A stretch of 25,905 nt of DNA from a virus (Duplodnaviria > Heunggongvirae > Uroviricota > Caudoviricetes), in IMG/VR virus record IMGVR_UViG_2711768032_000005; one strand, given 5' to 3'. Positions 6,632 to 25,905 of the stretch are shown here, one piece after another. The notes under the pieces were generated by a model, which worked only from the letters and a program-made list of their open reading frames with translations, was not told the DNA's origin and searched no databases. Within the stretch, counting starts at the first letter, position 1. The number at the start of each line of letters is the position of its first letter. Made by a program: the position numbers and the translations under genes.

Positions 6632-9226
6632 TTAGGCGGCGATGTTGATGTTATTTTTATATTTTAAGAGGGCGCTTTCTGGAACTGCTGGCCAGGCTGA
6701 GTATCTATAATAGTTCATATAATCTTTCTCTATCAGTCTCTTTAACTGTTTGTTAGCCTGAACTTCATCGTCAAGTAAAAAGAATGCACACATGGATGTA
6801 GCCCCTTTTGAATTATTATGTGCTAAAACTGAATTTATCTCATTCTTTTTAATGTCTTGTCTTTGTTTTTTCTTGGCAACTTCCCTATTGATTATTAAAA
6901 CATCTTTCTCTCTGTAATCTTTGATTTTTTCAAGATTTTCATTAGTTATTTTAATTGTTTCTTTATAGTTTCCTGCAAGAAGGTTAGTATAAGATTTTCC
7001 TAAGATATAATCACTAAACCCGTAACCTTTCTCATAAGCTTCATCAAGAAGAATTATCGCTTTTTCATAATCGCCGTTTAAAGATGCAATATCAGATTTT
7101 AATTTCAAAATGGTTATTTCTGATTTATTTCTTGGCAGGCTGTCAATAAACTCCTCTGCCAATTTGATGTTGTTTTTATCAATTAGCAATATGTCTATAA
7201 TACTGTCTGTATGATTATTCTTCCACGGACAATTCATGGCTTCTTTGGCTAATTCAATGCCAGCTTTGATGTCTCTGTTGCAGCCTATCTCATATCGAGC
7301 TTTAAATATAATGAAAGGAGCAATTCTTGCAATGTCGCCCTCTTCTTCATATTTATCAATAAAGTCTTTCATCAAGCCGGGAGTGTTTTCGTCAAAGTCT
7401 GTTTCAAATAAAGATAGATGCAGTTGTGTTAAATATTTTAATATATTTCTCTTTTTATTTTTTGATGATGTTTTGTAAACGTTGGATAATTTATCTATGC
7501 ACAATAATGCCTCTTCTTTTTTTTGCAATGCGCAGGTGAAATCAGTATATAACGACAAATATGTATCGTGAGTAGGGTTAACATCTTTTATTTTATCAAG
7601 TAGTTCTTGTATTGATTTGTTACAATCTTTCTTATCATAGCTTGATTGATGTTTTGTCTTTATCGCGTCATATTTTATTCTCCATGCAATATTATCCAGA
7701 TTACTGCTTTGGAGTAAACTTTTATCAATTAAATCATGTATTTCATCAAAGGTTATTAATTCCTCATCATGATTTTCTAGATGTAGAATAGCAATTCTGC
7801 TTAAATGATTCTTAAGATTTATGCTATATGGGAATTTTTCTAGCAATCCCTTTAGGTAATGTATTTTTTCATTTAGATCTGTGAATATGTTTGTCCTTGA
7901 TAGGGCGTAATTTATATTAAATTCATCAAGAGCTATGAGTTTATCACTAATTTCTAATGCTGACTTTGTGTCTTTTTGTTCTTCTTTTATTTCAATTAGC
8001 CTACGTAGATATTTAGATTTTATATTGTCACTATCAGCGTTATTGATTAAATCATTCAGTTTTGACTCTGCGTTTGAATAATTTTTATTTCTAATGAGGT
8101 TGTCAATGTATAACAAATTCTTAAAATCTTCTTCGGGAATTTTTTGTTCGTCTAAATCACTTTGGGATAGCTCGTTTATTAATGATGATATGTCATGTGT
8201 TAGAGTGTGTTTTTTTAATTTTGAGAGGTCAGATTTGATAATGTTATTTTTAGATAAGCTGTACTCATCTGTTATAAAGTTTTGAATCATCATCTCTCTT
8301 TTTGTGGATTTTTGATTCCCTCCAAAAGAGAGTGTGCAGCCTAATTCAAGGGCTAGTTCTGCCATTAATTCATCAAAGCCTTCTATTTCTACCCAATAAA
8401 CTTTCTCTTGACCTAGAAGCCTAATTAGTTCTGGTGGGATGGCGTCATTTTGTCTTACGCACCAATATACCCCATTCCGTAGGTAATCGTCCTGTTTTAA
8501 TAAATGTTTTAAAACATCCATGATAGAGCTGTCATTGCCAGCATAACCAACAAAAATAACCCCGTATTCTTTAGTGAATTCAGTTAGTTTTTCACGAGTG
8601 TTACCTTCTAATGACTCGGTTTCTTTTAAAGAGCTTTTTATGCTATCAAATAGATAATCACCATGTAATTTTATTATTTTTGGTCTTGAAGAAGTAATTG
8701 AGACGCCTTTAATTGATGAGTCATGTGCGCATAATAATGGTCTGTCAGAAGAAAATTGATAAAATGCTTCATTTATTAAATCGTCAAAATTTGTTGTGAA
8801 GACAGTATCAAAAAACTTTGATTCAAATAGTTCAACGAGATAAGCATATCCAATTGAAGGTAATTTTTTGTCTACTTGAAGCTCAACAAATCTTCTGCGT
8901 TGAGATGGGAGATCAAATTTCTTTTCAAAAAGAGAGGAGTATTCATTGTTTGGGTCGTACCAGACTGGATGGTTTTTGGATAGCCATTTTTTAGCTTCTT
9001 CGGCATCGATATATTCTTTATTGGATAGTCTTGTGTATATCTCTTCTCTCCATGTTGCAACTAACTCTTGACCAGTTTTTATTCCTGATGTAACGGATGC
9101 ACCAGCACCAAGAAAGAGTGAATAGTTAGGTGATGTACCTGATTTGATTTTTATATAATCTGCTAAATCTTTAACTGTTCTTTTTTTGGCAACCAGTTGT
9201 TCCTTGGTAGTATCACGATCAGACAT
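6632..9226 (-). CDS. SIR2-like (sirtuin-type NADase) domain protein with long helical C-terminal region; candidate anti-phage defence effector
   Basis: 864 aa; ATG at 9226 with strong GGAGGG RBS. N-terminal 300 aa carry SIR2-type motifs FLGAGAS (37-44), TTNFD (Asn146, codon 8789-8791), KLHGD (His188, codon 8663-8665), GYAGND; Asn-His spacing of 42 is similar to ThsA and DSR2. AT-rich, unlike flanking phage genes. Confidence 0.8.
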   Translation of the reverse strand: MSDRDTTKEQLVAKKRTVKDLADYIKIKSGTSPNYSLFLGAGASVTSGIKTGQELVATWREEIYTRLSNKEYIDAEEAKKWLSKNHPVWYDPNNEYSSLFEKKFDLPSQRRRFVELQVDKKLPSIGYAYLVELFESKFFDTVFTTNFDDLINEAFYQFSSDRPLLCAHDSSIKGVSITSSRPKIIKLHGDYLFDSIKSSLKETESLEGNTREKLTEFTKEYGVIFVGYAGNDSSIMDVLKHLLKQDDYLRNGVYWCVRQNDAIPPELIRLLGQEKVYWVEIEGFDELMAELALELGCTLSFGGNQKSTKREMMIQNFITDEYSLSKNNIIKSDLSKLKKHTLTHDISSLINELSQSDLDEQKIPEEDFKNLLYIDNLIRNKNYSNAESKLNDLINNADSDNIKSKYLRRLIEIKEEQKDTKSALEISDKLIALDEFNINYALSRTNIFTDLNEKIHYLKGLLEKFPYSINLKNHLSRIAILHLENHDEELITFDEIHDLIDKSLLQSSNLDNIAWRIKYDAIKTKHQSSYDKKDCNKSIQELLDKIKDVNPTHDTYLSLYTDFTCALQKKEEALLCIDKLSNVYKTSSKNKKRNILKYLTQLHLSLFETDFDENTPGLMKDFIDKYEEEGDIARIAPFIIFKARYEIGCNRDIKAGIELAKEAMNCPWKNNHTDSIIDILLIDKNNIKLAEEFIDSLPRNKSEITILKLKSDIASLNGDYEKAIILLDEAYEKGYGFSDYILGKSYTNLLAGNYKETIKITNENLEKIKDYREKDVLIINREVAKKKQRQDIKKNEINSVLAHNNSKGATSMCAFFLLDDEVQANKQLKRLIEKDYMNYYRYSAWPAVPESALLKYKNNINIAA

Positions 9227-9717: not shown

Positions 9718-10752
9718 TCAGCCGTTGTCAGTGTCCAGTGAGTAGTTTTTAAAGCGGATGACCTCCTGACCGAGCCAGCCGTTTATCTCGCGGATCCTGT
9801 CCTGTAGCGGGATAAGCTCATTGCGGACAAAGACCTTTGCCACTTTCTCAATATCACCCAGCGACCCGACGTTCTCCGGCTTGCCGCCCATCAACTGAAA
9901 GGGGATGCGGTGCGCGTCCAGCAGGTCAGCGGCGCTGGCTTTTTTGATATTAAAAAAATCGTCCTTCGTTGCCACTTCACTGAGCGGGATAATTTTGATG
10001 CCGTCGGCTTTCCCCTGTGGGGCATAGAGAAACAGATTTTTAAAGTTGTTGCGGCCTTTCGACTTCACCATGTTTTCGCGGAGCATTTCGATATCGTTGC
10101 GATCCTGCACGGCATCAGTGACGTACATGATGTATCCGGCATGAGCGCCGTTTTCGTAATACTTGCGGCGGAACAGTGTGGCTGATTCATTCAGCCAGGC
10201 AGAATTAAGGGCGCTGAGATATTCCGGCAGGCCGTACAGCTCCTGATTGATATCCGGCTCCAGCAGGTGAAACACGGAGCCGGGCGTGAAGGCTGTCGGC
10301 TCGTTGAAGGACGGCACCCACCAGTAAACATCCTCCTCCACGCCACGGCGGGTATATTTTGCCGGTGAGGTTTCCAGTCTGATGACCTTACCGGTGGTGC
10401 TGTAACGCTTTTCCAGAAACGCATTACCGAACACCAGAAAATCCAGCACAAAGCGGCTGAAATCCTGTTGCGAAAGCCACGGATGCGGGATAAATGTCGA
10501 GGCCAGAATATTGCGTTTAACGTAAATCGGTGAGCTGTGATGCACGGCAGCACGCAGGCTTTTCGCCAGACCGGTAAAGCTGACCGGCGGCTCATACCAT
10601 CTGCCGTTACTGATGCACTCGACGTAATCCAGAATGTCACGGCGGTCGAGTACCGGCACCGGCTCACCAAAGGTGAAGGCCTCCATTTTCGGGGCGCTGG
10701 CGGTCATTTTTTTTGCCTCAGGTTGCGGTGTTTTCCCTTTTTTCTTGCTCAT
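9718..10752 (-). CDS. Q: portal protein Q-like
   Basis: 344 aa, same length as P2 Q as recalled; start overlaps the P stop (ATGA); opposite orientation to the O-N-M-L block as in P2. Confidence 0.9.
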   Translation of the reverse strand: MSKKKGKTPQPEAKKMTASAPKMEAFTFGEPVPVLDRRDILDYVECISNGRWYEPPVSFTGLAKSLRAAVHHSSPIYVKRNILASTFIPHPWLSQQDFSRFVLDFLVFGNAFLEKRYSTTGKVIRLETSPAKYTRRGVEEDVYWWVPSFNEPTAFTPGSVFHLLEPDINQELYGLPEYLSALNSAWLNESATLFRRKYYENGAHAGYIMYVTDAVQDRNDIEMLRENMVKSKGRNNFKNLFLYAPQGKADGIKIIPLSEVATKDDFFNIKKASAADLLDAHRIPFQLMGGKPENVGSLGDIEKVAKVFVRNELIPLQDRIREINGWLGQEVIRFKNYSLDTDNG

Positions 10753-19948: not shown

Positions 19949-20857
19949 ATGCCGATTATCGACCTGAACCAGCTACCCGCACCGGATGTGGTCGAGGAGC
20001 TGGACTTTGAAACCATTCTTGCCGAACGCAAGGCGACACTGATTTCCCTTTACCCGGAAGACCAGCAGGAGGCGGTCGCCCGTACCCTGACGCTGGAATC
20101 CGAGCCTCTCGTCAAACTGCTGGAGGAAAACGCTTATCGTGAGCTTATCTGGCGTCAGCGTGTGAATGAGGCCGCACGGGCGGTGATGTTGGCCTGTGCA
20201 GCCGGTAATGACCTTGATGTGATTGGTGCCAATTACAACACCACGCGCCTGACTATCACCCCGGCAGATGATTCGACCATTCCGCCGACACCGGCAGTGA
20301 TGGAATCTGACACCGATTATCGTCTGCGTATTCAGCAGGCGTTTGAGGGCTTAAGCGTCGCCGGGTCGGTGGGTGCTTATCAGTATCATGGTCGCAGTGC
20401 CGACGGGCGTGTCGCGGATATTTCTGTAACCAGTCCGTCTCCGGCCTGCGTCACCATCTCTGTGCTGTCACGTGAAAATAACGGTGTTGCATCCGAAGAC
20501 CTGCTGGCCGTGGTGCGTAACGCCCTTAATGGCGAGGACGTCAGGCCGGTGGCCGACCGCGTGACCGTGCAGTCTGCCGCCATCGTTGAATACCAGATAA
20601 ACGCCACGCTTTACCTTTACCCTGGTCCCGAAAGCGAACCCATACGCGCTGCCGCCGTGAAAAAACTGGAAGCGTACATCACGGCACAGCACCGGCTGGG
20701 GCGCGACATCCGTCTGTCTGCCATTTATGCCGCTTTGCATGTGGAAGGCGTGCAGCGTGTCGAGCTGGCCGCACCACTGGCCGACATCGTGCTCAACAGT
20801 ACGCAGGCGTCTTTCTGCACCGAATGCCGCGTCGTGACCGGAGGCTCGGATGAGTGA
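19949..20857 (+). CDS. J: baseplate protein J-like
   Basis: 302 aa, same length as P2 J as recalled; synteny. Confidence 0.85.
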   Translation: MPIIDLNQLPAPDVVEELDFETILAERKATLISLYPEDQQEAVARTLTLESEPLVKLLEENAYRELIWRQRVNEAARAVMLACAAGNDLDVIGANYNTTRLTITPADDSTIPPTPAVMESDTDYRLRIQQAFEGLSVAGSVGAYQYHGRSADGRVADISVTSPSPACVTISVLSRENNGVASEDLLAVVRNALNGEDVRPVADRVTVQSAAIVEYQINATLYLYPGPESEPIRAAAVKKLEAYITAQHRLGRDIRLSAIYAALHVEGVQRVELAAPLADIVLNSTQASFCTECRVVTGGSDE

Positions 20858-21380
20858 TTCGCGACTGCTGCCGACCGGCTCATCACCGCTTGAAGTTGCC
20901 GCCGCAAAAGCCTGTGCGGAAATTGAAAAAACGCCGGTCAGTATTCGTGAGCTGTGGAACCCGGATACCTGTCCGGCAAATCTGCTGCCGTGGCTGGCGT
21001 GGGCGTTTTCGGTCGACAGGTGGGATGAAAAGTGGCCGGAAGCGACAAAACGCGCCGTTATCCGCGATGCCTATTTCATCCACTGTCATAAAGGCACTAT
21101 CGGCGCAATCCGGCGTGTGGTGGAGCCGCTCGGCTATCTCATCAACGTGACGGAGTGGTGGGAAAACAGTGACCCGCCCGGCACCTTCCGGCTCGATATT
21201 GGTGTACTGGAAAGTGGCATCACAGAGGCAATGTATCAGGAAATGGAACGGCTGATTGCTGATGCCAAACCTGCAAGCCGCCACCTTATTGGCCTGAACA
21301 TTACCCGGGACATTCCCGGCTACCTGTTCGCCGGTGGTGTGGCTTACGACGGCGATGTAATTACGGTTTACCCCGGATAA
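20850..21380 (+). CDS. I: baseplate / tail protein I-like
   Basis: 176 aa, same length as P2 I as recalled; overlaps J by 8 nt. Confidence 0.8.
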   Translation: MSDSRLLPTGSSPLEVAAAKACAEIEKTPVSIRELWNPDTCPANLLPWLAWAFSVDRWDEKWPEATKRAVIRDAYFIHCHKGTIGAIRRVVEPLGYLINVTEWWENSDPPGTFRLDIGVLESGITEAMYQEMERLIADAKPASRHLIGLNITRDIPGYLFAGGVAYDGDVITVYPG

Positions 21381-21390
21381 GTGAGGAATA

Positions 21391-23601
21391 ATGAGCACAA
21401 AATTCAGAACCGTTATCACCACTGCCGGTGCAGCAAAGCTGGCAGCGGCAACCGCACCGGGAGGGCGGAAGGTCAACATTACCACGATGGCCGTCGGGGA
21501 TGGCGGTGGTAAATTGCCTGTCCCGGATGCCGGACAGACCGGGCTTATCCATGAAGTCTGGCGACATGCGCTGAACAAAATCAGCCAGGACAAACGAAAC
21601 AGTAATTATATTATCGCAGAGCTGGTTATTCCGCCGGAGGTGGGCGGTTTCTGGATGCGTGAGCTTGGCCTGTACGATGATGCGGGAACGTTAATTGCTG
21701 TGGCGAACATGGCTGAAAGTTATAAGCCTGCCCTTGCCGAAGGCTCAGGGCGTTCGCAGACCTGCCGCATGGTCATCATCGTCAGCAGTGTGGCCTCAGT
21801 GGCGCTGACCATTGACACCACAACGGTGATGGCAACGCAGGATTACGTTGATGACAAAATTGCAGAGCACGAACAGTCACGACGTCACCCGGACGCCTCG
21901 CTGACCGCAAAAGGTTTTACTCAGCTAAGCAGCGCGACCAACAGCACGTCTGAAACACTGGCCGCAACGCCGAAAGCGGTAAAGGCCGCATATGACCTTG
22001 CTAACGGGAAATATACTGCACAGGATGCCACTACAGCGCGAAAAGGCCTTGTTCAGCTCAGTAGTGCGACTAACAGCACGTCTGAAACGCTCGCCGCAAC
22101 GCCGAAAGCGGTAAAGGCCGCATATGACCTTGCTAACGGGAAATACACTGCACAGGACGCCACCACAGCGCGAAAAGGTCTTGTCCAGCTCAGTAGCGCC
22201 ACCAACAGCGATTCTGAAACGCTTGCGGCAACGCCAAAGGCGGTAAAGGCCGCGTATGACCTTGCTAACGGGAAATACACTGCACAGGATGCCACCACGG
22301 CGCGAAAAGGGCTTGTCCAGCTCAGTAGCGCCACCAACAGTGATTCTGAAACGCTGGCCGCAACACCAAAAGCGGTGAGGTCTGCCTATGACAATGCTGA
22401 AAAACGTCTTCAGAAAGATCAGAACGGTGCGGATATTCCGGGAAAGGATACCTTCACGAAAAATATCGGTGCCTGTCGTGCTTATAGCGGCGCTTTGAGC
22501 ACTGAAGCCGGAAACTGGACAACCGCTCAGTTTATTGACTGGCTAGAGTCTCAGGGAGCCTTTAATCATCCTTACTGGATGTGCAAGTGTTCCTGGTCAT
22601 ATGGTAATAACAAAATTATTACCGATACTGACTGTGGGACTATTCATCTTGCAGGTTGCGTGATTGAGGTTATGGGCGTTAAAGCAGCAATGACCATTCG
22701 TGTGACCACTCCGAGTACATCAAGCGGTGGTGGTACCACCAGTGCGCAATTCACGTATATCAATCACGGAGCTGATTATGCGCCGGGCTGGCGACGCGAC
22801 TACAATACGAAAAATAAGCAACCGGCTTTTGCATTAGGGAAAACAGGAAATACGGTTGCAAATAATAAAGCGGTAGGATGGAACTGGGACAGTGGTGCTT
22901 ATTGTGCACAGGATGGCGGAGCATCAAAAATGGTGTTGCATTTTTACACGGGTGAGGGAAGTTGTCCGGCAATGCAGTTTCTTGTGGATTATAAAAACAG
23001 GGGGATTTTTTACAGGTCGGCACGTGATGGGTATGGATTTGAGGCTGACTGGTCAGAGTTTTATACCACATCACGAAAGCCAACACCTGCGGATATTCTT
23101 GCTCTGGCATTATCAGGCGGAAGCATGTCAGGCAGCATAAAATTTATCAATGATGCCTTCCTGATTTGGGAAAGAAACACTGACTGGGCGAAAATTGGAT
23201 TTAAAAATGATTCAGATGCTGATTCTGACTCATACATGTGGTTTGAAACTGGTGATAATGGCAATGAATATTTTAAATGGCGCATCAGGTCTGGCAGCAC
23301 AACAAAAGATCTGATGACGCTTAAGTCTGATGCACTACGGGTTACCGGGCAGGTGATACCATCAAATTTCAGCAATTTTGACTCCCGCTATGTCCGGGAT
23401 ATCCGACTTGGTGGTGCCGCCACATACAAACCTGCGAACAATGGCATGACATGGACACATCAGGCACCGTCCGGGTGTGTATATACCGGCATTATTGTTC
23501 AGGATACCGGCTCAAACTCTGCCGATAACATTGGTGGCGTATATTACAGACCGGTTCAGAAATACATTAACGGGACATGGTACAACGTGGCGCAGGTATA
23601 A
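21391..23601 (+). CDS. H: tail fibre protein H-like, with internal tandem repeats and a divergent middle segment
   Basis: 736 aa; N-terminus MSTKFRTVITTAGAAKLAAA and C-terminal tip QKYINGTWYNVAQV resemble P2 H as recalled (P2 H is shorter, about 669 aa). Confidence 0.85.
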   Translation: MSTKFRTVITTAGAAKLAAATAPGGRKVNITTMAVGDGGGKLPVPDAGQTGLIHEVWRHALNKISQDKRNSNYIIAELVIPPEVGGFWMRELGLYDDAGTLIAVANMAESYKPALAEGSGRSQTCRMVIIVSSVASVALTIDTTTVMATQDYVDDKIAEHEQSRRHPDASLTAKGFTQLSSATNSTSETLAATPKAVKAAYDLANGKYTAQDATTARKGLVQLSSATNSTSETLAATPKAVKAAYDLANGKYTAQDATTARKGLVQLSSATNSDSETLAATPKAVKAAYDLANGKYTAQDATTARKGLVQLSSATNSDSETLAATPKAVRSAYDNAEKRLQKDQNGADIPGKDTFTKNIGACRAYSGALSTEAGNWTTAQFIDWLESQGAFNHPYWMCKCSWSYGNNKIITDTDCGTIHLAGCVIEVMGVKAAMTIRVTTPSTSSGGGTTSAQFTYINHGADYAPGWRRDYNTKNKQPAFALGKTGNTVANNKAVGWNWDSGAYCAQDGGASKMVLHFYTGEGSCPAMQFLVDYKNRGIFYRSARDGYGFEADWSEFYTTSRKPTPADILALALSGGSMSGSIKFINDAFLIWERNTDWAKIGFKNDSDADSDSYMWFETGDNGNEYFKWRIRSGSTTKDLMTLKSDALRVTGQVIPSNFSNFDSRYVRDIRLGGAATYKPANNGMTWTHQAPSGCVYTGIIVQDTGSNSADNIGGVYYRPVQKYINGTWYNVAQV
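21910..22396 (+). repeat. four tandem 132-bp (44-aa) in-frame repeats inside the tail fibre gene
   Basis: Units start at 21910, 22042, 22174, 22306. Protein unit KGLVQLSSATNS(T/D)SETLAATPKAVKAAYDLANGKYTAQDATTAR; by eye copies 2 and 3 differ at about 13 of 132 nt, mostly synonymous; the fourth copy diverges in its last third. Confidence 0.85.
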
Positions 23602-23604
23602 TTT

Positions 23605-23646
23605 ATGCAGCATTTGCGTATTACCGTGAAGGAGATCGGTGAGTAA
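23605..23646 (+). pseudogene. 13-codon ORF (MQHLRITVKEIGE) at the position of tail-fibre assembly gene G; possible 5' remnant interrupted by the IS
   Basis: ATG 4 nt after the H stop; first four residues MQHL match my uncertain recollection of the P2 G N-terminus; stop at 23644-23646; IS genes follow. Confidence 0.3.
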
Positions 23647-23699: not shown

Positions 23700-24352
23700 T
23701 CACTGATCTCCTTCGGTCAACGGAGATTGTATTTTCCGCATTGATTCTCCTTTAAGTTCGATCTTGATACTGCCATGAACCAGTCGATCTAGGATGGCAT
23801 CCGCATGTGTGGAGTCTCCGATCATTTTGTACCAGTTTTCCACCGGCAACTGGCTCACTACGATGATTGAGCCTCGTTGGTACATCAGATCCACTATTTC
23901 CAGCAGGTCGCTACATGCCCCTGATAGCACTGTTCCATCAGCGCTTTAAGGCGATAATAGTAGACCTTGTATCCCTGTCGGCAGGCATTATGACCAAGTG
24001 CACATGCCAGGAACGTTTTACCGCTGCCGGTGGCCCCGGTCAGTAAAATATTTTGTTTCAGGGTTAACCAGTTTCCCTGACTGAGTGAACGGATGAGGGC
24101 CCTGTCCAGCCCTCTATTGTTACGATAATCCAGCTTTGATAACTCAGCATTAAGTCTGAACCGTGCATGTTTGATCAGACGCTCTGCCTTCCTGTTTTCA
24201 CGGCAGGTTAGTTCTTCTGCTGTCAGTAATGACAGGCGTTCTTCGAAGCCCAGCTCCTGGTATGTGCCCGGTTGAGCAAGTTGCTTTTTAAGCGCATCAC
24301 GGAAGCCGGTGAGTTTAAGTGCGGTCAGTTGTTCGTAAAGATGATTCATCAT
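23700..24352 (-). pseudogene. istB: istB (IS21 helper ATPase), disrupted
   Basis: Two fragments in different frames (23894..24352 with Walker A; 23700..23930 with C-terminal RGSIIVVSQLP...ILDRLVHGS...KGESMR). Frames overlap around 23930-23945 and the segment expected to hold Walker B (hhhhDE) appears missing. Confidence 0.65.
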
Positions 24353-24363
24353 TGGATCCCGTA

Positions 24364-25905
24364 TCAGTGGTAATACTCACTGCCGCGTACGTTTTCGTGT
24401 TCCATCGTGGATAACAGATCTGGTTTTGGATCCTGAACAGGTTGTTTATCCAGACCTTTTTCCAGGATCGATTTAATACCTGACAGACGCCATACCTTTG
24501 TTTTCAGAGCTCTTGCACATGCTGCATTAAGTCTGGCTTTACTGTATTTTTTATGAAGGTTCAGGAGTCCAAGGCAGAAGCGATAGCTTTGTTCCGGATG
24601 TGGACGAGAGTTCAGTATATGAAGCACATAACTATGAGTTTCACTGCCTATGTGCCCCGCCCATTCCAGAAGACGCTCTGGCGTCCAGGTGGCATGCTGT
24701 CGATGAGCTTCAGGCATGTGCTCGTTGCGGGTACTGTAGCCATAAGTACGCTTGCGCGGGTGCACAGCAACCTCCTGCCCCTGATTGAAGAGTCTTACCA
24801 GTTCTCCGGAGATCCATGCTTCCAGTTGCTGGCCTAACAGCGAACATGGAACCGAGTAGTAATGTTTGTCGATTTCCACGTGGTAATCGGCATGAACTCT
24901 GACTTTCTTCACCAGGGTGTAACTGTAACTGGCTTCAGGAAGAGGCTTCAGTGCGGGTTTATCAAGCTGGATGAAGAGTTCTGCACGTGAATAACCCAAC
25001 TTCTGCATTATTTTGTTATTCAGTCTTTCCAGCAACTCCCGAATGCGCTGATTAAGCGATGCAAGGCTGTAGAAGATCTCATGCCTGATTCGGGCCATGA
25101 TCCAGCGTTCAACAACCTGAACGCCAACTTCAGCTTTGGCTTTATCTTTCGGTTTACGTGGCCGCGCAGGCAAAACTGCGACATTATAATGCTCAAGCAT
25201 CTGCTGGTAGGTAGGGTTAACGTCAGGATCATACTTACATGCCCTGGATGTGGCGCTTTTCAGATTGTCCGGAACAACAAGTTCAGGAACGCCACCCAAC
25301 CACTGGAAGCAGCGAACATGACTCATCACCCAGTCTTCAAGCTGCTGAGACCAGGTGGCCTCTGCCCATGTGTAACTTGATGCCCCGAGAACAGCTACGA
25401 TGACCTGAGCAGTTCTTATTTCTCCGGTCTCAGGGTCGGTAACGCCAACGGTAGGTCCACAGTAATCAACGAAAAGTTTTTCGCCAGCTTTATGTACCTG
25501 ACGCATTGATGGTGAAGTGGTTTTGAGCCATTCACGGTACATCCGGCAGTAATGGTTATAGCTGTAAAAACCGCCTGGATTACGCTCACAGTATTCTTCC
25601 CAGAGTAGCTGCAGCGTCACGCATTTATTACGCAGTTCCCGGTGTACTGTAGCCCAGTCAGGCAGAGAGTGCTTCTTCATCTTAACCTGGGTCTGAAGGA
25701 ACGCATGTTTTAGTTTTGTATCATCCCATCCTGTAGGTAAGGGCCACTGCTTTATGCCAAGTTGAGCCGCCCGATTAGCATATCTGGATACAACGGAAGG
25801 GGAGATTGCAAGACTACGACCAATTTGTCGATGGCTGAGTCCAACACCGTATTTAAGCCTAAGAATTTCTTTAAGTTTTCTCATAGAAATTGGAACTGTT
25901 GGCAT
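24364..25905 (-). CDS. istA: IS21-family transposase IstA
   Basis: 513-aa ORF; N-terminal HTH (LSHRQIGRSLAISPSVVSRY); directly upstream of istB. ATG lies at the last three bases of the window, so the true start could be further upstream. Confidence 0.8.
   Translation of the reverse strand: MPTVPISMRKLKEILRLKYGVGLSHRQIGRSLAISPSVVSRYANRAAQLGIKQWPLPTGWDDTKLKHAFLQTQVKMKKHSLPDWATVHRELRNKCVTLQLLWEEYCERNPGGFYSYNHYCRMYREWLKTTSPSMRQVHKAGEKLFVDYCGPTVGVTDPETGEIRTAQVIVAVLGASSYTWAEATWSQQLEDWVMSHVRCFQWLGGVPELVVPDNLKSATSRACKYDPDVNPTYQQMLEHYNVAVLPARPRKPKDKAKAEVGVQVVERWIMARIRHEIFYSLASLNQRIRELLERLNNKIMQKLGYSRAELFIQLDKPALKPLPEASYSYTLVKKVRVHADYHVEIDKHYYSVPCSLLGQQLEAWISGELVRLFNQGQEVAVHPRKRTYGYSTRNEHMPEAHRQHATWTPERLLEWAGHIGSETHSYVLHILNSRPHPEQSYRFCLGLLNLHKKYSKARLNAACARALKTKVWRLSGIKSILEKGLDKQPVQDPKPDLLSTMEHENVRGSEYYH

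Follow-up and report, generated by a model that had tools for sequence, protein, structure and literature searches.

The 25,905-nt window (the whole stretch of DNA analysed, IMG/VR record IMGVR_UViG_2711768032_000005) contains a tail fibre gene with a 132-bp tandem repeat, and this locus raises the question of what the repeated unit is, how its copies arise and change in number, and what the array does for the fibre. The reading that we favour, with a probability of roughly 0.85, is that PF03406 units are arrayed in a P2-like gene H, that they are old paralogues gained and lost by unequal recombination, and that each would serve as a module of the fibre shaft, with a splice point for distal domains at the array's end.

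Tandem Repeats Finder returned a single strong array (21922-22376; period 132, 3.4 copies, 90% matches, 0 indels, score 707), and all other tandem arrays in the window scored 42 or less. A repeat search recovered 226-nt copies at 21909, 22041 and 22173 (spacing 132/132), the later two being 88% and 83% identical to the first. Within 21910-22386, identity reached 0.887 at lag 132 and 0.831 at lag 264 against a background of 0.259 ± 0.037 (maximum 0.341), and lag identity never exceeded 0.375 in 200 codon-shuffled versions of the gene. All four unit starts lie in frame 0 of the open reading frame and correspond to residues 174, 218, 262 and 306, a step of exactly 44 residues, and no frame shift was found within the array. 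Lag analysis and Tandem Repeats Finder thus agree with the original prediction, which had named these starts and described an exact, in-frame 132-bp periodicity encoding a 44-aa unit.

Table 1. Features of the tail fibre gene in the window.
Feature	Position	Strand	Basis or remark
Gene H, P2-type tail fibre protein, 736 aa	21391-23601 (stop codon included)	+	Open reading frame, translation, Pfam PF12571 and four PF03406 units
N-terminal tail-collar / baseplate-attachment domain, aa 1-151	21391-21843	+	PF12571
Short linker between collar domain and array, aa 152-173, predicted helical	21844-21909	+	Translation, AlphaFold2 model
Repeat unit 1 (KGFTQLSS...DATTAR), complete, 44 codons	21910-22041	+	
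Repeat unit 2, complete, 44 codons	22042-22173	+	90% DNA identity to unit 1, with a 53-nt exact in-register run in common
Repeat unit 3, complete, 44 codons	22174-22305	+	Absent from the otherwise identical E. coli RX24 gene
Repeat unit 4, truncated; about the first 27-29 codons conserved (KGLVQLSSATNSDSETLAATPKAVRSAYD), then a Mu-S-type linker (NAEKRLQKDQNGADIP)	22306-22392	+	
Distal (receptor-binding) part, aa 334-736, mosaic of Mu S'-like and Mu S-like segments	22390-23598	+	PDB sequence matches

The Pfam profile PF03406, 'Phage tail fibre repeat', matched the gene product with 262.1 bits (cut-off 22; E = 1.1e-79) in four stretches, the best of which covers profile positions 1-41 of 42. The unit, which had been likened to a phage tail-fibre motif, is therefore a member of this family, and the profile matches identify the array as four PF03406 units of 44 aa or 132 bp, three complete and one truncated, in a P2-type gene H fibre. 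The claim of four tandem copies accordingly stands at the level of Pfam units, which are scored as four despite the truncation, and fails for the fourth copy as a full repeat: unit 4 is 86% identical to unit 3 over its first 81 nt and 67% identical over the full 132 nt, and its conserved part ends at about 22386-22392, with unrelated sequence thereafter. Because it keeps only some 27-29 codons, the DNA holds approximately 3.4-3.6 copies.

The host gene was identified from its attachment domain and its neighbours. PF12571 gave a full-length match (E = 2.7e-58; profile positions 1-150 of 150), and directly upstream lie open reading frames of 636, 348, 909 and 531 nt, completing a V-W-J-I-H order that is also that of P2 and of the E. 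coli D6 prophage (baseplate V, GPW/gp25, a baseplate assembly protein in the P2 J position, tail protein I and tail fibre), the latter being 99.7% identical to the window over 8.2 kb. The product has the same sequence (100% identity) as WP_053276451.1, which is annotated in D6 as 'tail fiber protein', and the gene matches P2, Wphi, fiAA91-ss and many Peduovirus H genes at 94-98%. Given the collar domain and the gene order shared with D6, we assign the gene as a homologue of P2 gene H in a P2-like (Peduovirus) E. coli prophage, in line with its earlier designation as tail fibre gene H. Only the first 9-12 nt (ATG at 23605) of the cognate tail-fibre assembly gene G were found 3' of H, where an ISEc12 (IS21-family) element breaks gene G at 23613-23616; this loss is a defect of the present prophage copy and leaves the classification of H unaffected. 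Among complete E. coli genomes, none was found to carry the junction of H with this element.

The array occupies exactly the interval that separates the conserved attachment domain at the N-terminus from the exchangeable distal part, which is here of Mu S/S' type. Residues 177-416 of the S/S' chimera 8ju3 match aa 334-571 (E about 1e-118), and residues 183-267 and 425-503 of Mu S (5yvq) match aa 572-656 and 652-735, respectively. P2 gpH likewise carries PF03406 units behind a PF12571 collar at a 44-residue period and shares 94% DNA identity over the common part, whereas it has two units, its own distal domain and 669 aa, as opposed to four units, a Mu S/S'-like distal part and 736 aa in the window. 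Mu S (gp49) contains one PF03406-type unit at residues 117-159, to which window unit 4 aligns, followed by the '...RLAKDRNGADIP' linker of the window, and the distal part of window H is highly similar to Mu S' and S; Mu differs in having a single unit and another N-terminal attachment domain, and it changes its distal parts by inversion of the G segment. Beside H in the window there is an IS element instead, and neither an invertase nor a second, inverted distal segment was found there. A PF03406 unit is also present in the constant part (Sc) of P1/P7 S at 64-65% identity, in D108 S as in Mu S, and in lambda Stf and the Stx-phage tail fibres at 57-79% protein identity, although the last two are siphovirus side fibres with other attachment domains and other unit numbers. 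Its occurrence in the lambda Stf and Stx-phage fibres is consistent with the classic picture of fibre-gene mosaicism, reportedly drawn by Haggard-Ljungquist et al. in 1992 (J Bacteriol) and by Sandmeier in 1994 (Mol Microbiol).

The distal classes part company at two places: divergence begins directly behind codon 27 of the last unit in the P2 type ('MDETNKK...') and otherwise behind '...NGADIP'. In L-413C, gpH is at least 91% identical to P2 H only over the first 207 aa (PMC7460101), which puts this break within unit 1. From the sequence breakpoints we infer that the start of the last unit, with its conserved first ~27 codons, and the adjoining '...NGADIP' linker form a homologous splice junction at which distal modules would be swapped among P2-, Mu-, P1- and lambda-type fibre genes.

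Each unit probably constitutes one structural module, predicted as strand-strand-helix, of a trimeric fibre shaft, and the number of units would set the length of the proximal shaft and hence the reach of the receptor-binding tip. An AlphaFold2 monomer model of aa 1-400, built on a 24-sequence alignment, had a mean pLDDT of 51, with good confidence in the N-terminal collar domain only, values below 50 throughout the array and a low-confidence linker helix at 150-164; as fold matches from a low-confidence model are meaningless, only the secondary-structure pattern was taken from it. PDB sequence searches with the array and with the unit profile matched only Mu S chains (5yvq, 8ju3 and 9ki1), and the Mu cryo-EM study newly modelled only the gp49 N-terminus and fitted the existing C-terminal crystal structure (PMC11915804). 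In the T4 gp34/gp12 repeats, a beta-strand begins at a conserved Gly, and a helix that is N-capped by an [ST]-P pair contributes to a three-helix bundle lying on the fibre axis in the crystal structure (PMC5537660). The window unit shares this motif logic (KG-LVQLS ... AATP-KAVKAAYD, predicted strand-strand-helix). Assignment of the unit to the T4 alpha-beta repeat itself is not supported by sequence, no relation being detectable, which leaves a motif-level fold lead: PF03406 had no match to T4 gp34 at E≤10, the unit HMM found nothing in it, and hhalign against its repeats (552-598, 744-776, 780-812 and 823-868) gave 2% probability over 9 columns.

The age of the units was also considered. The statement that the copies differ mostly at synonymous positions is true for units 1-3, whose differing codons were synonymous/non-synonymous in ratios of 10/2 (unit 1 versus 2), 12/3 (1 versus 3) and 12/1 (2 versus 3), corresponding to Nei-Gojobori estimates of 0.38-0.58 for dS, 0.026-0.058 for dN and 0.05-0.10 for dN/dS. 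Units differ at 13-19 of 132 positions; across units 1-3, protein identity is 93-98% and DNA identity 86-90%, and the longest exact in-register runs between units measure 23-53 nt. In the 55 other four-unit arrays, the positional counterpart was the nearest one for window units 1-4 in 55/55, 46/55, 55/55 and 55/55 cases. Since each unit has such a counterpart, the units are old paralogues rather than an artefact, their protein kept nearly constant under purifying selection while synonymous sites drifted. Together with a DNA divergence of 10-15% and an identical gene in three complete genomes, these counterparts uphold the earlier view that the repeats are neither a recent duplication nor an assembly artefact.

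The median synonymous divergence of units 1-3 from their positional counterparts was 0.23, compared to 0.07-0.12 for the flanking J, I and H N-terminal sequences, so that the array exceeded its flanks two to three times in 43 of 44 relatives; the array was first compared with the H N-terminus on loci chosen by N-terminal identity, which is biased, and repetition with genes I and J as controls gave the same direction, with some bias possibly remaining through the linkage of both control genes to the region used for selection. Such an excess would be expected from more frequent sequence exchange in the array than in its flanks, which would occur if the array were mainly a recombination adaptor for the exchange of distal modules and copy number a neutral by-product. 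We regard this account, which is compatible with a shaft role and places the emphasis elsewhere, as possible but rather unlikely. Its strengths are that the PF03406 unit is common to P2-like, lambda, Stx, P1/P7 and Mu/D108 fibre genes, that homology breakpoints cluster at last-unit codon ~27 and just past NGADIP, and that gene H has matches in 2606 of 5426 complete E. coli genomes, at a median of 2 places in each. An adaptor alone, however, would not need the near-invariant protein of each unit (dN of about 0.007 between orthologues and the low dN/dS between units), nor the strict 44-residue register kept in every genus examined. The near-invariant protein and the kept register instead point to a structural constraint on each unit.

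The gap between protein and DNA identity, the high dS and the shortness of the exact runs would also fit selection for synonymous divergence itself, which would lower DNA identity and guard the array from deletion. This explanation appears improbable: identical runs of 29-53 nt persist, deletions and duplications demonstrably still occur, and age combined with purifying selection on the protein suffices without any extra selection.

The units change in number by whole copies. A comparison of copy number among related prophages, which the original prediction had proposed, yielded 2 to 6 units, always whole and in register. Among 76 close genes, a non-random set taken from the 80 IMG/VR loci that matched best at the N-terminus, 7 had 2 units, 56 had 4 and 13 had 5, and the array began at residue 174 in 76/76. 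Units were counted with an HMM built from the array units, and as terminal units in the seed flatter the last-unit scores, only counts and positions were used. The top 120 protein homologues had 3-6 units, other genera had 1-4, and 5 of 30 full-length matches in complete genomes were exactly 132 bp shorter. Many database homologues are labelled 'partial'. Two units go with the P2-type tip and 4-5 with Mu-S-like tips, and 3, 4 and 5 units were seen inside single tip classes. Because copy number is largely confounded with distal-module class, it may hitch-hike with the distal module instead of being tuned.

The junctions that accompany these changes were examined in individual genes. The E. coli RX24 gene is 100% identical to the window in its N-terminal part and 99.9% identical in its distal part, and has exactly one unit fewer: units 1 and 2 are unchanged and are followed by one hybrid that has the base of unit 3 at position 6 and continues as unit 4, indicating a crossover within the 29-nt exact run common to units 3 and 4. 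RM7190 and phage fiAA91-ss carry a 1-3-4 array. Moreover, five-unit arrays contain neighbouring units identical at 131/132 positions, units 3-4 in one (L048) and units 2-3 in another (L064), and these different places argue for independent recent duplications. The suggestion that the repeats are a substrate for recombination is thus directly visible in the RX24 junction, and the compared sequences demonstrate that whole units are gained and lost by unequal homologous recombination between neighbouring units, which accounts for close relatives with 2 to 6 units in register.

That nearly identical prophages, such as the window's and RX24, differ in copy number might bring to mind a contingency locus for phase or antigen variation, with copy number switching at high frequency within a population. 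We consider this very improbable, as all changes are in frame and turn nothing on or off, 132-bp units diverged by 10-15% are unlike short identical contingency units, and four units form a stable modal state across dozens of diverged arrays. Least credible of all is an assembly artefact in which units were collapsed or expanded: long tandem repeats are notoriously prone to misassembly and the 'partial' labels might hint at it, but the differing positions make the units individually recognisable, three complete E. coli genomes from separate assemblies (D6, S40 and ARL09/232) contain the identical 2211-bp gene and 22 more a gene of the same length, four units are the count in 56 of 76 close genes, and only 4 of 120 homologues end in or beside the array, which also makes the earlier worry about short-read collapse a weak one. 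The original prediction would have taken a different copy number in long-read data as a sign of assembly error; this criterion is unsafe, because related strains can differ in copy number through natural polymorphism.

A more speculative extension, which we regard as doubtful, would treat the array as an evolvable 'length ruler', in which unit number is matched to the tip for receptor depth and the excess synonymous divergence of the array reflects ongoing gene conversion between units, together with exchange with other fibre genes of prophages, while the protein is almost absolutely constrained.

The repeat is an ordinary feature, already known as a curated Pfam family, and the exact protein is in RefSeq as a tail fibre protein, so that its value as a discovery is small; the practical interest lies in RX24, the polymorphism and the fusion points. 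The RX24 deletion junction is a textbook case of unequal recombination within a structural gene. P2-type H genes are naturally polymorphic in unit number (2-6), and differences between assemblies should not be called errors unchecked. Engineers of P2/P4 particles with chimeric fibres could make fusions at points that nature offers, either the ~27 conserved codons that open the last unit or the NGADIP linker, and could treat the number of units as a variable of the design. If the array does act as a length ruler, it would keep the tip as far from the baseplate as the depth of a particular receptor requires.

Tandem Repeats Finder detected one strong array in the window (21922-22376, period 132, 3.4 copies, 90% matches, no indels, score 707), with all remaining arrays scoring 42 or less, and a second, independent repeat search recovered three copies of 226 nt, with starts at 21909, 22041 and 22173 and a spacing of exactly 132 nt. 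Self-identity across 21910-22386 reached 0.887 at a lag of 132 and 0.831 at a lag of 264, against a background of 0.259 ± 0.037 at other lags, and the best lag identity never exceeded 0.375 in 200 codon-shuffled versions of the tail fibre gene H. The repeat is real, and the four unit starts of the original prediction all lie in frame with the H open reading frame. Units 1-3 are complete at 44 codons each; conservation in unit 4 is limited to the first ~27-29 codons (81-87 nt), after which a different sequence follows. The description as four repeats therefore holds at the level of the protein motif, and the DNA amounts to 3.4-3.6 copies, unit 4 being incomplete. A 94-aa antisense ORF with a TTG start lies wholly within the repeats; we interpret it as arising from the repetition rather than as a gene.

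Features of gene H and other parts of the window
Feature	Position in window	Strand	Position in product	Basis or remark
Gene H	21391-23601	+	736 aa	P2-type tail fibre gene, three parts
PF12571 (phage tail-collar fibre protein, N-terminal)		+	aa 1-151	full-length Pfam match
PF03406 (Phage tail fibre repeat) x4	unit starts 21910, 22042, 22174, 22306	+	repeat array	Pfam, 262 bits; gathering cut-off 22
Whole distal part	22390-23598	+		
Distal part, Mu S'-like		+	aa 334-571	8ju3 (S/S' chimera) residues 177-416, S' part, E ~1e-118
Distal part, Mu S-like		+	aa 572-656 and 652-735	5yvq residues 183-267 and 425-503
Antisense ORF	22053-22337	-	94 aa	TTG start
SIR2-domain gene	6632-9226	-	863 aa	PF13289
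Portal-sized ORF	9718-10752			P2 Q position, by size and position alone
Gene G start codon (ATG)	23605			
End of homology to D6 prophage	23616			followed by ISEc12 to window end, 25905
istA of ISEc12	24364-25905	-		
istB of ISEc12, two ORFs	23894-24352 and 23700-23930	-		97-nt internal deletion

The predicted likeness to phage tail-fibre repeat motifs was borne out by the four PF03406 matches, and the assignment to gene H by PF12571, by 99.7% identity to the prophage of E. coli D6 over the 8.2 kb up to the H stop codon and by the gene order, which in the D6 annotation runs from lysis genes through tail genes and baseplate V, W, J and I to the tail fibre, as in P2. Over shared parts, the DNA of H is 94-98% identical to its counterparts in P2 and further Peduovirus phages, and its match to an annotated 'tail fiber protein' is 100% in three E. 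coli strains (D6, S40 and ARL09/232). The array is a direct member of PF03406, carried by a direct P2 gpH homologue; the feature is already known, and RefSeq already contains this exact protein. P2 itself has two units, whereas H of the window has four and a tip resembling Mu S/S', the alternative G(+) and G(-) tail-fibre forms. The distal part itself is a mosaic of Mu S'-like and Mu S-like segments, and neither an invertase gene nor an inverted alternative segment was seen downstream of H.

Pairwise, units 1-3 differ at 13-19 of 132 DNA positions and at 1-3 of 44 residues, and Nei-Gojobori estimates (dS 0.38-0.58, dN 0.026-0.058, dN/dS 0.05-0.10) substantiated the claim of a conserved protein encoded by synonymously diverged DNA. 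The comparison set combined H genes of 23 further bacterial species with those of the best 80 IMG/VR matches to the N-terminal domain. Unit 1 was nearest to unit 1 of the window in all 55 other four-unit arrays, as units 3 and 4 were to their own counterparts; unit 2 matched its own counterpart best in 46 arrays and window unit 3 in nine. Given these positional counterparts, the units are long-standing paralogues with positional identity, which rules out recent duplication as well as misassembly, two origins that the original prediction already discounted. Purifying selection acts on the units. Their protein is nearly constant even in the distant genera Buttiauxella, Scandinavium and Citrobacter, and 62 distinct complete units fall into only seven clusters at 86% identity. 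Between positional counterparts of units 1-3, dN was ~0.007 and median dS 0.23, versus 0.116 for J, 0.083 for I and 0.074 for the H N-terminus. In 43 of 44 close relatives, array dS (units 1-3, 21910-22305) was higher than flank dS (19949-21909) by a factor of two to three, a contrast that may in part be sampling bias, since loci were picked by N-terminal similarity. The raised dS is in line with frequent exchange; conversion between units or exchange with other fibre genes may be the cause. Two P2-type H genes of enterobacterial kind, with N-terminal domains 74-78% identical to that of the window, came from loci (L012 and L017) in records labelled Vagococcus sp. WN89Y, which is a Firmicute, and Chryseobacterium sp. 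18061, a member of the Bacteroidota; these assemblies are probably contaminated or mislabelled.

Copy number, proposed earlier for comparison among related prophages, varied. Among 76 genes (that of the window counted in) whose N-terminal 170 aa match the window at 97% identity or more, two units were present in seven, all of P2 type, four in 56 and five in 13; the top 120 protein-database homologues had three (28), four (64), five (24) or six (4), and other genera one to four. Every array started at residue 173-174 and kept the 44-residue register. The same full-length gene occurs in 30 complete E. coli genomes, as the 2211-bp form in 25 and as a form exactly 132 bp shorter in five. In E. coli RX24, H matches the window at 100% in its N-terminal part and 99.9% in its distal part, and its array comprises window units 1 and 2 unchanged, followed by a single unit that carries the base of unit 3 at position 6 and matches unit 4 from there onward. 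The crossover therefore falls within positions 7-35, exactly the 29-nt stretch over which units 3 and 4 are identical. Such a junction is what unequal homologous recombination between adjacent units, or slippage between them during replication, leaves behind, and it upholds the suggestion that the repeats are a recombination substrate. RM7190 and phage fiAA91-ss carry a 1-3-4 array, and adjacent pairs identical at 131 of 132 positions occur in five-unit arrays at different places (units 3-4 in locus L048, units 2-3 in L064); all of these events are independent of that in RX24. Whole-unit copy-number changes are thus demonstrated, together with their recombination junction. A strain that is related but deviates in unit number thus shows natural variation, and taking a different copy number as proof of assembly error is unsafe except within the very same strain. 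Variation in unit number is what such repeats lead one to expect; our literature search found no paper tabulating it across P2-like prophages.

The remainder of the window is consistent with a P2-like prophage, with an integrase, replication protein A (PF05840), capsid genes and ORFs matching the P2 portal and terminase genes by size and position alone; no RNA families were found anywhere in the window with Rfam. A gene for a protein with a SIR2-like domain sits between replication gene A and the ORF of portal size. The N-terminal ~350 aa of its product match the PADLOC models Aga_SIR2-PNTD and PDC-S65, and the C-terminal ~500 aa gave no family match; the site of the gene is a P2-like position for variable anti-phage cargo. 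Gene G, encoding the fibre assembly chaperone, is interrupted 9-12 nt past its start codon, where homology to the intact D6 prophage gives way to the IS21-family element ISEc12. This ISEc12 copy, whose istB was judged against an intact ISEc12 in E. coli N427, looks defective for its helper ATPase. With no functional G, the prophage copy is probably unable to assemble functional fibres. The H-IS junction was absent from the complete E. coli genomes in our collection.

Each unit would form one module of a trimeric shaft. An AlphaFold2 monomer model repeated strand-strand-helix in every unit at pLDDT below 50, and no solved structure known to us shows the unit resolved. In a survey of 2021, PF03406 is listed among repeat families without known structure (PMC8078820), and of Mu gp49 only the N-terminus was built in a cryo-EM study (PMC11915804). 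In the alpha-beta fibrous repeat of T4 gp34 and gp12, a Gly opens the strand, with an [ST]-P pair capping the axial helix (PMC5537660). The PF03406-type unit has this motif logic in common, which we regard as a lead only; Pfam, HMM search and hhalign gave no support for homology. If the units stack along the axis, their number would set the length of the proximal shaft, as first proposed.

Clustering resolved the sequence past codon 27 of the last unit into many distal classes. The P2-type class, with two units, departs immediately ('MDETNKK...'); several Mu-S-like classes, with four or five units, have 'YDNAEKRLQKDQNGADIP' in common and diverge past it, and three distal classes mix four- and five-unit members. 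Strong homology of Yersinia phage L-413C to P2 H stops at residue 207 (PMC7460101), which lies inside unit 1. Mu S has one unit only (aa 117-159), then the same type of linker, and the PF03406-type unit is also present in lambda stf, Stx-phage fibres, P1/P7 Sc and Mu/D108 S. In the classical view, reportedly from Haggard-Ljungquist et al. in 1992 and Sandmeier in 1994, motifs common to fibre genes are crossover points for the horizontal exchange of receptor-binding parts. The position of the array at the junctions of distal classes agrees with this view.
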